Source of the DNA: Chloroflexota bacterium
Lineage (GTDB): Bacteria; Chloroflexota; Dehalococcoidia; Lucifugimonadales; UBA3495
Length of the DNA: 64,000 bases
Reading direction: 5' to 3'
NCBI GenBank assembly: GCA_028875655.1
Contig: JAPPCX010000112.1
Span: 141-64,140, forward strand
Position 1 is the stretch's first letter. Each line of letters starts with the position of its first letter. Both the position numbers and the translations under genes were made by a program. Positions 28,268-51,140 of this stretch are shown here, in pieces. A model generated the notes under the pieces. It was not told the origin of the DNA and ran no database searches. It worked only from the letters and a program-made list of their open reading frames with translations.

Positions 28268-28708
28268 TTACGCGGGCCGGAACATGGGCAGGGAGATGTT
28301 TTCGTCGATGTCCTCAAAGACGACCTCCACCGCCATGCCGCACTGCACAGAATCGGGACGAATCTCGCCCTCGCCGAACTCGATGCCCACCAGCCAGGTG
28401 GGAATGCGTGGGCCTTCCTCCAGTTCCACCACCGCCACGATGTAGGGAACCTTGTCCCGAAAGGCTGGCGTGGGGCCCCGGTGCACGATGGCGAAGGTGT
28501 GCAAGGTGCCGCGGCCGCTGGCCTGTATCCAATCGGTGTCGCGGCAGAAGCACCCGGGGAACGGGCAGATGTCCCGGGGGTAAAAGTAGGCATGGTCGCC
28601 TTTGATGCAGCGGCGCAGCCACAACTCGTGGGCCTTGCATTTCTCCCAGTAGAAATCGGATTCCGGTTGCGGAACGGGCAGGGGAATCTGGGGGGCGGCC
28701 TGGGTCAT
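28268..28708 (-). CDS. DUF35 Zn-ribbon/OB-fold protein
   Basis: FYWEKCKAHELWLRRCIKGDHAYFYPRDICPFPGC (rubredoxin-like knuckles) followed by an OB-fold segment GTLHTFAIVH...VAVVELEEG. Confidence 0.7.
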   Translation of the reverse strand: MTQAAPQIPLPVPQPESDFYWEKCKAHELWLRRCIKGDHAYFYPRDICPFPGCFCRDTDWIQASGRGTLHTFAIVHRGPTPAFRDKVPYIVAVVELEEGPRIPTWLVGIEFGEGEIRPDSVQCGMAVEVVFEDIDENISLPMFRPA

Positions 28709-28804
28709 TTTGCGAATCTCCCGTCGTTGGTGGTCAACGAATAGCTAGCGATGGTCGGCAGCAAGGATAGCGGCAGACGCCGGGCAACGCAAGCAGCCCC
28801 GGCG

Positions 28805-29113
28805 GTGGCGATTTTTTGGAAATCCCGCTCATTTCCGCTCGTTTCGGTCCATTTGAGTAGGGCGATAGGACGTGACGTTGGAGGTAAATGGGGGCGGCGA
28901 GGTCGGTTTTGGGGGCCAAAATGATGGTTTTGGCGGGCTGGCGGGAGGATTTGGGGGCGGTGTTTGAGGGTGGCGCGTGATTGTCTGAATCAGGATTATC
29001 GAGATTAGAGGATTTTCAGGATTGGGAGCTTCCGGGTATTTGGAATGGGGCGATTGGACGGCTAGGTTAAATGGTACGGATGGATGGAGGGTTAGGACAA
29101 GGGGGACTTGTCA
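28805..29113 (+). repeat. ~310-bp strand-asymmetric mosaic repeat, copy A (G/T-rich strand on +)
   Basis: Aligns by eye with 50701-51017 (+) and with the reverse complement of 42361-42714. Shared blocks: CCGCTCATTTCCGCT, TTTGAGTAGGG, GGTTTTGGGGG, TTTTGGCGGGC, GGATTTGGGG, TTAAATGGTACGGATGGATGGAGGGTTAG.ACAAGGGGGA..TGTCA. Confidence 0.85.
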
Positions 29114-29120
29114 TTTGTTG

Positions 29121-29558
29121 TCAAACTAAATGGACGATTTCCACGTCGCCCCAATGCCTTTGCAGGTGTTCGGCGACGAGCCGGCGATGGCAGCGGTCGG
29201 CGGTGGGTTCACTGCACAGCAGGCAACTGTCGGCGATTATTTCCCGAGGGATGGCGGCGCGGATGAGCCGGCGTTCGATCAGGTTGTTGAATATGGGAAC
29301 GTACTCATCCCAGGTGATCTGCTTCTTGCGGTAGGCGTCCAGCAATTCGTCGGTGGGAGACAGCCGGGGCAGGTGTATGTAGTCCATACCGCACAGTTCG
29401 CGCAGGAACCACGCCAGATCGTCCTTCTTCGCGAACCCGGCCAAGCCGGAGGTGTTGCGGCGGCGTATGTCCACCACGCGCTTGGCTCCCGACTCGCGCA
29501 GCAGCCCAAAGAATCGCTCCGCCGACTTGCGCGTGAAGCCGATGGTGTAGAACTTCAT
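29121..29558 (-). CDS. DUF488 family protein (short paralogue)
   Basis: MKFYTIGFTRKSAERFF..L...G...VVDIRR... and LLCSEPTADRCHRRLVAEHL (DUF488 C..CHR signature). The ATG at 29558 shares one nt with the upstream stop (TGATG). The track start is 29573. Confidence 0.8.
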   Translation of the reverse strand: MKFYTIGFTRKSAERFFGLLRESGAKRVVDIRRRNTSGLAGFAKKDDLAWFLRELCGMDYIHLPRLSPTDELLDAYRKKQITWDEYVPIFNNLIERRLIRAAIPREIIADSCLLCSEPTADRCHRRLVAEHLQRHWGDVEIVHLV

Positions 29559-41517: not shown

Positions 41518-41656
41518 CGTGGGGGCAGAATGCAACATCAAAAATTGGACATCAGATCGAAGAGCGATATAGACTCCCCACGAACATGTTCACACAACCA
41601 GCGTATAACCATGTGGGATTCAAACTGATTTAGCAATGCAGGTTGGAGAGCGTAAA

Positions 41657-41977
41657 ATGGCGTGGGGAACTTTTTTGCAAGTTTTGACGATCGCAGTCTC
41701 GTTGCTGATCGCAGTCGGGGGATGGATATGGAATGACTTCTCGAAGAGAAACTCCGAGGAGCGCCAAAGAAAAGAAGAACGTTATACTGCCCTTCTGGCC
41801 AGTACGAAAGGCTTTTACCAAAATGCCGATCACAACGAAGCTTATGAACTCAAAAAGGAACATGCGCTGGGCGAGTTCATATTGGAGATAAGAAAAGACC
41901 TTTTCGGAAAACGATTTTTGTTCTGGGGTAGAACACGTTTGGTCTGGTCGGATTTCCGTATTCTTACCAGTACGTAG
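41657..41977 (+). CDS. hypothetical small membrane protein in an AT-rich pocket
   Basis: 106 aa from the ATG at 41657 (GGAGAG upstream). One TM segment (FLQVLTIAVSLLIAVGGWIW), then a Lys/Glu-rich tail. Composition differs clearly from the flanks. Confidence 0.35.
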   Translation: MAWGTFLQVLTIAVSLLIAVGGWIWNDFSKRNSEERQRKEERYTALLASTKGFYQNADHNEAYELKKEHALGEFILEIRKDLFGKRFLFWGRTRLVWSDFRILTST

Positions 41978-41989
41978 CCGTCCGTCTCT

Positions 41990-42340
41990 TCAGGAACGGA
42001 CGTCCGGCGCGGCCGGTTCGGTTGCCGACATTCCCCGGCTCGACAGCCCGTGCCGCATCAACAGGCCGGCTACGCACAGCGACAGCGACGTGAAGCTGAC
42101 CACGGCCAGGGACAGGCGCAGGTCTCCGGTTGCCTGCTGCAACGCGCCGCAGACCAACGGCCCGATGGTGATGCCCGCCGAGCTGGACATCTGAATGAAC
42201 GACAGGCTGACCGCGATTTCCCGGGGATGGACGCCCGGCAAGTGGAACGGCGTTGAACAGAGGACGGGCCAAAATCCGAAGGCGATGCCATTGACGAAGG
42301 TCAATGGCAACAGCGCGGGCAACGAACCGGTAAGGGTCAT
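41990..42340 (-). pseudogene. C-terminal remnant of an MFS transporter
   Basis: The 116 aa correspond only to the last ~4 TM helices (FGFWPVL, SSSAGITIGPLVCGAL). Upstream sequence is replaced by repeat copy C starting 20 nt away. Confidence 0.6.
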
Positions 42341-42360
42341 GCCGGCGGACGACGAACCAA

Positions 42361-42714
42361 TGACACTTCCACCTTGCCCCTACTCACCATCCATCAGTAC
42401 CATTTAACTACCCAACCGCCCAACTCCATCCCTCCGCCCGAATCCAAATGGGCCGCAACCCCGAAATCCTGATTCTGACAATCACGAACCATCCCCAAAC
42501 ACCGCTCCCCCAAACCCTCTCAAATGCCCGCCAAAAGCCCCAATATCACTTCCAAAACCGGCTCAATTCTCCCCCATTCACCCCCACGTCCCACCCCCTG
42601 CCCCTACTCAAATAACCGGAAGTGAGCGGAAATGAGCGGGTTTCCGCAAAAACCCCCGCCATCCCAATGAAATCCCTGATCCTGCCCATCCTGTTCATCC
42701 ATGCAAATAACTCC
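42361..42714 (-). repeat. ~350-bp mosaic repeat, copy C (C/A-rich strand on +)
   Basis: The reverse complement aligns with copies A and B end to end, including the 26-nt GCATGGATGAACAGGATGGGCAGGAT motif (42679-42704). Confidence 0.85.
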
Positions 42715-42787
42715 CTACCCCGGTTTAGACCGCCAGTCGAAAGCCCCTGGCGAGAACCGCGCCCATGATGACGACGCGGCCCGTCTA

Positions 42788-42796
42788 TGCTAGAAT
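42788..42796 (+). promoter_or_regulatory. extended -10 (TGCTAGAAT) upstream of the DsbA-like gene
   Basis: Lies 59 nt before the ATG at 42855, so transcription would include the upstream ATG and the TGA codon. Confidence 0.35.
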
Positions 42797-42854: not shown

Positions 42855-43487
42855 ATGGCCGACACCGATTTCAAGGTATATTACGACTTTCGTTGACCCT
42901 TCGTGTACAACGCTGCCATGTGGTGGGCGAAAGTACGCGAGAACACTGACCACGAAATCAACGTGGAACTCAAGCCGTTCTCGCTGGTCCAGGTAAATCA
43001 CGACAACAACAACGACGACGGGTTCAAGTATTGGGAACAGGACGACTCGGACAACACCCTGCTCGAGTTGCGCGCCGGCCTCGCCGCCGAACGCCAGGGC
43101 GAAGAAATCTTCGACCGGTTCTTCATCAACCTGCTGAAGGCCCGCCACGAAGACCGTATCGACCTCACCGACGCCGACGCCATCAACGCTGTGGCCGAGG
43201 CTTCGGGCGTTGACATGGGCCGGTTCGCGGAAGACCTGGCCGACCCCGACATCCTCCGGGAAATCGGCGAGAGCCACACCGAAGCCGTGGAAATTCACGG
43301 CGCGTTCGGGGTGCCGCTGTACGTCTTCCCCAACAACAACGCCGCCTTCGTCAAGATGTTCATACCCACCGACGAAGAAGCCGGGCCCATCTACGACAAC
43401 CTGGTCGAGATGATGGCCGACCACCGGCACGTGGGCGAGGTCAAGCGCCCGTCCCCGCCGTGGCCGTATGAGGGTGTCCGCGGCTAA
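42855..43487 (+). CDS. DsbA-like thioredoxin-fold protein, candidate selenoprotein (TGA at 42894-42896 read as Sec)
   Basis: ATG at 42855 with GGAGGTG 6 nt upstream. Translation MADTDFKVYYDFR-TGA-PFVYNAAMWW... continues in frame into track ORF 42903..43487. The TGA sits where DsbA-like proteins have the first Cys of CPxC (..YYD..CPFCY..). C-terminal GVPLYVF is typical of the fold. Confidence 0.6.
42900..42941 (+). promoter_or_regulatory. candidate bacterial SECIS hairpin
   Basis: UUCGUGUAC/GUACGCGAG forms a 9-bp lower stem (with G-U pairs). Above it are an AA/AAA internal loop, an upper stem CGCU-GCC/GGU-G-GGCG with a bulged G, and an apical loop AUGU that starts 25 nt from the U of UGA. Confidence 0.45.
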
Positions 43488-48020: not shown

Positions 48021-51017
<2,997 letters not shown>

Positions 51018-51140
51018 CAGCCGGAGGCGGCGGGATTTACGGGGATGACCGAAAGGCGCTTTGGATTCATGGTTGCTAGCGCCACACTCACTGGGTAAGA
51101 TGGCGGCAGTTTGACGCGGGTCCATTGGGGCAGGTGAGGC

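Follow-up and report, generated by a model that had tools for sequence, protein, structure and literature searches.

What are three strand-asymmetric repeats of about 310 to 350 bp doing in a single stretch of a Chloroflexota genome, and why does each stand just upstream of a gene on its own strand? The stretch, hereafter the window, is 64,000 nucleotides long (positions 141 to 64,140 of contig JAPPCX010000112.1, assembly GCA_028875655.1) and comes from a member of the Dehalococcoidia. An initial annotation, made from the letters alone, described the repeats as a portable, modular upstream element aimed at genes. That description stands, but what was described as a repeat is just the interior of a longer cassette of ~780 bp (consensus, 781 positions), which is without a transposase and is distributed through this part of the Dehalococcoidia. 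The three repeats are likely decayed copies of this cassette, a non-autonomous transposable element of the kind known as a mobile insertion cassette (MIC).

The three copies (28805-29113, 42361-42714 and 50701-51017) align end to end over 438 columns with a mean column identity of 73%, and the conserved blocks first listed for them are found in the aligned copies. Their positions were right and their bounds too narrow; we widened these from the cassette model and motif positions. Three copies turned out to be an undercount. In the host genome (G000; a 3.45-Mb assembly of 123 contigs, 62.7% G+C), a profile built from the three window copies gave 41 matches, and a later profile of the complete element (nhmmer cassette model) gave 45. 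Copies within this genome are 67–83% identical to each other. Copy C has matches in 25 of 41 genomes (the host and 40 relatives), the cassette occupies ~15–35 sites per genome, and a 21-nt piece of the conserved end is present in public records labelled as Dehalococcoidia or Chloroflexi metagenome-assembled genomes. The strand asymmetry is as reported, with 40–43% G and 12–15% C on the G-rich strand. The embedding of other short repeats within the element was also supported: two pieces are found alone elsewhere, one being the central part of A and B (CTGAATCAGGATT...) and the other a 26-nt motif of copy C. The latter (~26 nt, GGTTCGACAGGCTCACCATGAGCGG, window 50882-50907) is an independent repeat that occurs at 97–100% identity in many genomes of the genus.

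Alignment of the genomic copies with their flanks revealed that the C-rich strand of the repeat leads straight to a ribosome binding site (RBS) and a conserved gene starting MTISxIRRR, which we call ORF110. Read along the C-rich strand, an intact cassette consists of a left inverted repeat (CAGGGCCTTTCGATTCTCC), ~35 nt, a TGACAC box, a promoter-like block (TTGCCC-N18-TACCAT), a C-rich stretch, an RBS, ORF110 (110 aa), 28 nt and a right inverted repeat (AATCGAAAGGCCCTG). An intact ORF110 frame (107–117 aa) lies behind the repeat at ~12 loci of the host genome, with stubs at others. ORF110 is complete in 89 of 91 units, and in 76 of these it is exactly 330 nt long. Database searches returned 204 relatives at E ≤0.001, nearly all of the 120 listed being 107–112 aa, and the few listed matches that carry a source name are labelled hypothetical protein; relatives are encoded at 170 loci in public genomes. 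We found no significant match to ORF110 in Pfam, NCBIfam, PHROGs, PADLOC, a PDB sequence search or Foldseek, and its AlphaFold model is all-helical (pLDDT 81). The cassette interior holds only ORF110, with or without a second gene encoding a helix-turn-helix (HTH) protein. Neither matches a transposase catalytic domain, and the HTH gene gave only sub-threshold HTH matches, some of them to transposase HTH families. The consensus between the ORF110 stop and the right repeat contains no hairpin followed by a T-run. We considered and dropped the idea that the small gene works with an IscB/TnpB-type guide RNA, a retron or a bridge RNA, as ORF110 is small and all-helical and the repeat is unstructured.

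The ends of the cassette became apparent from two pairs of filled and empty sites, in which the motif upstream of TGACAC is the inverted complement of the motif past ORF110. GGGCCTTTCGATTCTCC was detected in 31 of 90 units, mostly 51–53 nt before TGACAC, and AATCGAAAGGCCC in 33 of 90, mostly 28 nt past the ORF110 stop; 21 units have both, one of them among the longer units described below. Extended by two more bases, the ends are CAGGGCCTTTCGATT...AATCGAAAGGCCCTG. Insertion sequences (IS) of the ISAs1 family have ends that begin CAGGG and generate duplications of 8–10 bp. Among 30 ISAs1-type elements of the genus we picked out one, in the related genome G047, of 1229 bp with a PF13808 (ISAs1-type) transposase, CAGGGTCTTTCGATTATCCAGT at both ends and a 10-bp duplication. 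Its likeness to the cassette covers the first ~24 nt only. The possibility that IS and cassette share internal sequence, such as a promoter, was therefore rejected. The cassette resembles ISAs1-family elements in its CAGGGC start, its duplications (roughly 8–10 bp versus 9–10 bp) and the ~24-nt match to the G047 IS, but differs in having no DDE transposase and no homology beyond the ends. A published ISAs1 member, ISArsp11, has the inverted repeat CAGGGCTGATGCAAAGTCG (CAGGGC...) and a 10-bp direct repeat (PMC6305408).

A pattern derived from these ends (CAGGGYCTTTCGATT, ≤1 mismatch) matched 62 times in G047, 35 in G052, 25 in G023, seven in G018 and four in the host genome, and its reversed control gave zero matches in every genome searched. 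The G047 matches resolve into nine 1229-bp IS pairs, ~15 pairs delimiting miniature inverted-repeat transposable elements (MITEs) of 88–136 bp, and one 739-bp pair of cassette size. The IS copies in G047 are flanked by clean 9–10-bp duplications. Most of the MITEs there (~15, loci L166-L180, 88–136 bp, with the cassette's ends) also have clean 9–10-bp target duplications, which suggests recent activity of the cassette-type IS subgroup in that genome. PF13808 transposases are present in 33 of 40 genomes of the genus. The host genome has a single PF13808 match, in a 1239-bp element with a 382-aa open frame (contig C50:7453-8691), whose ends (CAGGGCAATCGCATCTTA) and 10-bp duplication (TGTCGCCAGC) carry the ISAs1 signature of another subgroup. 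We rejected this element as the mobiliser because its ends diverge from those of the cassette after CAGGGC, and we found no cognate insertion sequence with cassette-type ends in the host genome. At one locus (L039), the right end of a cassette abuts CAGGGCAATCGCGTCTT, the terminal repeat of the other ISAs1 subgroup, which suggests nested or adjacent insertions of two ISAs1 subgroups.

Flanking 10-mers match at at least 8 of 10 positions in 11 of 21 cassettes, compared with 2.7% of mismatched controls, and the target duplications of the cassette are roughly 8–10 bp. More than 10 sites are filled in a relative and lack the unit in the host genome, with 2–120 nt between the matching flanks. For a subset of these pairs we used anchored terminal repeats to read the junctions, and there the insert begins and ends no more than a few nucleotides from the repeats. 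Only one cassette of the host genome runs from repeat to repeat (C76:14503-15288, consensus 2-781), and its flanking 10-mers agree at 8/10 positions. These data bear on the proposal that the units are an ordinary paralogous two-gene chromosomal operon, copied by recombination or segmental duplication, near which unrelated inverted repeats merely happen to lie. Such an origin would accommodate the 67–83% identity of the host copies (no recent burst there), the many copies without terminal repeats, and the location of copy B at a rearrangement junction. It is nevertheless very unlikely, given that the inverted repeats stand at fixed distances from the unit and match IS ends, that target duplications exceed the controls, and that insert edges coincide so closely with the repeats in the pairs examined.

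We therefore return to the MIC. By definition, MICs carry passenger genes between IS-type repeats, have no transposase of their own and are activated by a cognate transposase (PMC4337579). The cassette shares with MIC231 of Bacillus cereus and the TnXax1-related MICs of Xanthomonas (PMC4337579) passengers bounded by IS-type repeats, the lack of its own transposase, a cognate transposase elsewhere in related genomes, and target-site duplications. It differs from them in having ISAs1-type rather than IS231-type or Tn3-type ends, and in its passengers, which encode an HTH protein and a protein of 110 aa where those MICs have an enzyme or effector. Its orientation to the next gene is strict, and its host belongs to a Dehalococcoidia group known only from metagenome-assembled genomes. 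The Correia elements of Neisseria are short transposase-less repeats with inverted ends that gather beside genes and can supply promoter elements. Compared with these, the cassette is larger, encodes a protein, has ISAs1-type ends and follows a much stronger orientation rule. In summary, the cassette is probably a MIC with ISAs1-type ends, whose two cargo genes are uncharacterised and whose orientation rule is marked; in the host genome it occurs mainly as fossils.

The origin of the C-rich stretch is indicated by longer units, here termed master copies, which exceed the common form by ~380 nt and have the HTH gene between the repeat and ORF110. There is one in the host genome (contig C40) and one to three per relative sampled. 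The host master copy (C40:22429-23510, HTH gene plus ORF110) lacks both terminal repeats and is divergent from a 484-aa DNA methyltransferase-like gene; methyltransferase-like frames also lie upstream of units at L072, L073, L078 and L094. Homology between the master and common forms ends just after GAAATGAGCGGGAAATC and restarts past the stop codon of the HTH gene, and this deletion junction is apparently identical in all derived copies, within alignment uncertainty. The common ~780-bp form is thus a derivative of the master, produced by a deletion after the seventh codon of the HTH domain. In the masters the C-rich stretch is open and corresponds to MPTSKHRKHRSPKPAHLP...PPDPP...AEMSGNEREIDL, the N-terminal tail of a 180-aa protein. 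The tail-coding region spans 147 nt without indels in five master copies, gene callers predict 173–184 aa for most of 108 relatives of the HTH protein, and all 36 aligned relatives, down to 33% identity, have a basic, proline-rich tail of comparable length in front of the conserved domain. The tail of the masters is therefore best regarded as coding, and is probably translated. Given the deletion, the C-rich stretch of the common form is a pseudogenised tail-coding region, and the G/T richness of the other strand is the antisense of decayed Pro, Lys, His, Thr, Asn and Gln codons. Likewise, the codons for MSGNERE, read in antisense, give the tandem CCGCTCATTT motifs. Thus the original statement that no frame is open across the copies holds for the three window copies, although their sequence descends from coding DNA.

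The 180-aa protein is modelled as an HTH followed by two long helices in a helical hairpin (pLDDT >90), with the 48-residue basic tail disordered. Its best PHROG matches are terminase small subunits (TerS), weak at E 2e-4, and its best Foldseek match, also weak, is 2ao9 (E 0.01, TM 0.46 normalised to the target). It shares with TerS proteins such as PDB 2ao9 and Sf6 gp1 an N-terminal HTH followed by long helices, and differs in the weakness of the matches, the disordered 48-residue basic tail and the genomic setting, as no large terminase or other phage gene adjoins the HTH gene.

Descent from tail codons also accounts for features that had been given other explanations. The initial annotation noted that the G-rich strand could form G-quadruplexes, and a G-quadruplex or i-motif element in which antisense G-runs modulate transcription or replication near a gene start could be envisaged from the 12–22 runs of at least three G per copy and the relaxed motif in 27 of 32 copies. 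The canonical motif, in contrast, occurs in only 16 of 32 copies and is absent from copy A, the G-runs shift position through frequent indels between copies, and the composition is explained by the Pro/Lys/His/Thr-rich tail codons, so that we regard this function as highly improbable. It is extremely improbable that the repeat encodes a structured RNA, whether a small RNA, as raised at the outset, or a leader that regulates in cis. The sense orientation upstream of genes, the several conserved blocks and the ~300-nt length would suit such an RNA. Against it, there is no Rfam match (gathering thresholds for the whole window; E ≤5 for copy A), and folding is no better than that of shuffled sequences (z of -0.29 and +0.31 for the two strands of copy C and -0.62 for the sense strand of copy A). 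Moreover, one partner base makes up 12–15% of the sequence, which precludes many G-C pairs; indels between copies are many; and the conserved blocks are accounted for as the promoter-like block and codon relics. A tRNA/tmRNA scan found nothing.

The best-conserved part of the cassette is the block from TGACAC to TACCAT. In the 68 unique copies whose spacing is standard, TGACAC has an information content of 1.88 bits, TACCAT 1.90, TTGCCC 1.38 and the 18-nt spacer 1.06, compared with only 0.41 for the 12 nt upstream of TGACAC and 0.44 for the first 10 nt after TACCAT. The hexamers are 18 nt apart in 33 of 37 units, and positions 2 and 6 of the -10 hexamer keep their A and T, respectively. The layout is also kept before distant two-gene modules whose HTH proteins are 46–53% identical (TTGTCA-N18-TACCAT and TTGCCA-N18-TAACAT). 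This pattern fits a putative promoter with an upstream protein-binding box. Near-identical upstream regions before unrelated genes, within and between genomes, have been described as putative mobile promoters (PMC3575422). The present repeats are alike in lying as near-identical upstream regions before unrelated genes, and differ in that the vehicle is identified here as an inverted-repeat cassette and the repeated region includes a gene.

The relationship of the cassette to neighbouring genes is far from random. Of 89 cassettes scored in about ten genomes, 84 share the strand of the gene downstream and five are opposed to it, so the bias noted in the window extends genome-wide and across species. 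Upstream neighbours are divergent in 54 cases and co-directional in 32. By setting, ~53 cassettes are in divergent, ~30 in tandem sense, four in convergent and one in tandem antisense regions, compared with an intergenic background in the host genome of 69% tandem, 19% divergent and 12% convergent. Within the host genome, all copies with a callable neighbour aim at a gene start (the one apparent exception is a doubtful ORF inside the master copy), and upstream neighbours are mostly divergent. It had been suggested that random orientation would indicate a passive MITE-like repeat; the element is indeed a transposon derivative, yet its orientation is not random. The IS copies behave differently. 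The nine in G047 (four divergent, two tandem sense, two tandem antisense and one convergent) follow no orientation rule (6 versus 3), and across the genus the bias of IS copies (13 same, 5 opposite) is much weaker than that of the cassettes. We attribute the preference for promoter-bearing regions to the transposition system, or to the tolerance of such regions, and the strict orientation to the cargo. At many insertion sites, TATAAT-, TAGAAT- or TAAAAT-like boxes occur ~20–45 nt past the right repeat, and we infer that insertions are located just upstream of resident promoters. Cassette relics also lie directly upstream of housekeeping genes elsewhere in the host genome (C12:16685-16989 and C2:9580-9735), namely, as judged from N-terminal sequence, those for ribosomal proteins L21/L27 (MDYAIVKTGGKQ, MAHKKAGGSTNN) and a glutamine synthetase-like protein (MSYKAEYIWIDG).

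Each of the window copies is aimed at a gene start on its own strand, and the identities first given to the three genes were confirmed. Copy A (28800..29121, minus strand) is a relic that spans consensus positions 46-340 of 781 in the nhmmer search with the cassette model and has no terminal repeats and no ORF110. Its box is TGACAA (29108..29113, minus), a version of the conserved TGACAC, and motif position places its promoter-like block, TTGTCC-N18-TACCAT, at 29071..29100 (minus), below the threshold of the sigma-70 scan. A nested short repeat module, GATTGTCTGAATCAGGATT...TTTTCAGGATT (28979..29026), was recognised by separate BLAST matches to copy A positions 172-221 and occurs alone elsewhere in the genome. 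Alignment to the master copies identified a relic of the first HTH-domain codons, GAAACGAGCGGAAATGAGCGGGA (..MSGNERE), at 28823..28845 (minus). The gene downstream (28268..28708, minus) matches PF01796, OB_ChsH2_C, formerly DUF35. Copy A is an old fossil, because the same truncated form is present at the orthologous site in G047 and G052.

Copy B (42361..42749, plus strand) extends from its TGACAC box (42361-42366) to the right terminal repeat; ORF110 is wholly deleted and the left repeat is absent. Motif positions place the promoter-like block (TTGCCC-N18-TACCAT) at 42374..42403 and the relic of the first HTH-domain codons at 42619..42641, both on the plus strand. Copy B keeps the sequence that normally follows ORF110, that is, the cassette 3′ tail and right terminal inverted repeat CCCGGTTTAGACCGCCAGTCGAAAGCCCCTG (42719..42749, plus), which is found at a fixed 28 nt past the ORF110 stop in 33/90 units. 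The downstream DSBA-like gene (42903..43487, plus) has a promoter-like site of its own, ATGACG-17-TAGAAT (42768-42796), according to a promoter scan. Synteny breaks at this copy (window 41520-42770): the DNA to its left, with a major facilitator superfamily (MFS) gene, is at ~2.308 Mb in G047 and that to its right, with the DSBA-like gene, at ~3.896 Mb, near ligA. The flanks are thus ~1.6 Mb apart in G047, and the same split was found in all five relatives compared, none of which has a cassette at the locus. The rearrangement may have involved a copy of the cassette.

Copy C (50606..51061, minus strand; consensus 5-478 in the cassette model) keeps a degenerate left repeat and an ORF110 stub. 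The repeat, AAGCGCCTTTCGGTCATCC as against CAGGGCCTTTCGATTCTCC in the intact cassette, is at 51043..51061 (minus), ~9 nt inside the left edge of a segment that is absent from G042 and specific to G000. It is followed on the same strand by the TGACAC box (51011-51016), the promoter-like block TTGCTC-N18-TACCAT (50974..51003) and the relic of the first HTH-domain codons (50754..50776), all placed by motif position, and then by an RBS, GGAGGTA (50688-50694), before the 21-codon stub (50617..50682), in which approximately the first 18 codons of ORF110 are joined to the last few and the stop. Downstream is ligA, encoding the NAD-dependent DNA ligase (48452..50551, minus). The site in the close relative G042 retains only a ~55-nt remnant. 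In G018, ligA is preceded by a complete unit whose ORF110 is intact, and the other 27 species searched have no cassette-model or ORF110 match upstream of ligA; the unit is thus present in two of 30 species. The TATACT box of ligA itself is found in all nine aligned species, whether or not the cassette is present. The conserved ligA promoter region (CCCGCCYGGKYTATACT; window 50560-50600 and L010-L018, nine aligned species) has a similar counterpart, CCCGGTTTAYAC, in the cassette 3′ tail.

Do such fossils persist because the host uses them? An exapted regulatory module, in which fossils are kept as upstream promoters or operators of host genes and the master HTH protein putatively binds TGACAC at all copies as one regulon, is compatible with a transposon origin and differs only in why copies persist. 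It would explain why no parts are better conserved than the TGACAC box and the -10-like hexamer, why these two survive in copies that lack terminal repeats and both genes, and why copy A has the same truncated form in three species. The one master HTH gene in the host genome and one to three in the relatives sampled, the confidently modelled DNA-binding domain of the HTH protein and the conservation of the block in distant modules are in keeping with it. We nevertheless consider it unlikely, in view of the conserved TATACT promoter that ligA keeps for itself, the 28 of 30 species in which ligA has no cassette, and the decay of the copy C orthologue in G042 to ~55 nt. In addition, copies were detected by homology, which favours conserved parts. 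The specific proposal of a transposon-borne regulon, in which every cassette-derived promoter would have the putative master HTH regulator bound at its TGACAC box, upstream of the -35, is quite doubtful. If true, dozens of unrelated genes would share a trans-controlled upstream promoter, including ligA, the DSBA-like gene and the PF01796 gene in the window and rplU-rpmA and glnA elsewhere. In a bolder variant, the putative TerS-like protein would mark cassette sites so that a phage or gene transfer agent could package the DNA.

Several observations weigh against the interpretation of the repeats as remains of a MIC with an outward-firing promoter. Most copies in the host genome, including A (neither) and B (no left), lack recognisable terminal repeats, and the membership of such copies is therefore based on internal homology. 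The sole ISAs1 element of that genome has unlike ends (CAGGGCAATCGCATC), and many of the target duplications of the cassette are degraded. Constraint on ORF110 is only moderate, with dN/dS ~0.5 among paralogues. The promoter-like block matches the Escherichia coli sigma-70 consensus at 8/12 positions, which is below the scan threshold, and was not called by the promoter scan. Finally, MITEs with the same ends in G047 are in eight divergent, six tandem and one convergent regions, an enrichment of divergent sites over the 19% background, so part of the placement bias may be due to the choice of target and not to selection. Both the IS and the MITE samples are small, and the orientation counts of the cassettes overstate the number of independent events, because some loci are orthologous between genomes.

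Taken together, the observations are compatible with the following history of the MIC. An ISAs1-family IS of the same genus, with ends that match those of the cassette, would be the likely supplier of transposase in trans. The ~780-bp form arose from the master by loss of the HTH gene, leaving tail-coding DNA behind as the C-rich stretch. The promoter-like block would fire through ORF110 and out of the right end; if it does, copies that transcribe antisense into a neighbour would be purged, and the remaining cassettes would point into the next gene. In the host genome most copies have since lost their ends, and the window copies are fossils.

This single account covers the strand-asymmetric repeats of these sponge-associated Dehalococcoidia together with the 21-codon ORF, an orphan of 117 aa and the HTH gene that resembles a terminase. 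With the model of the family and the motif of the ISAs1 ends, such sequences can be labelled correctly where they would otherwise be called as spurious ORFs or left as long intergenic regions without explanation. As a pair, the HTH protein and ORF110 have been kept together down to ~40–50% protein identity, and such persistence on a transposase-less element needs explaining. A cassette with a promoter-like block that occupies ~15–35 sites per genome, and is almost never directed against a neighbouring gene, is a natural system in which to study mobile DNA and regulation, as well as how selection filters insertions.

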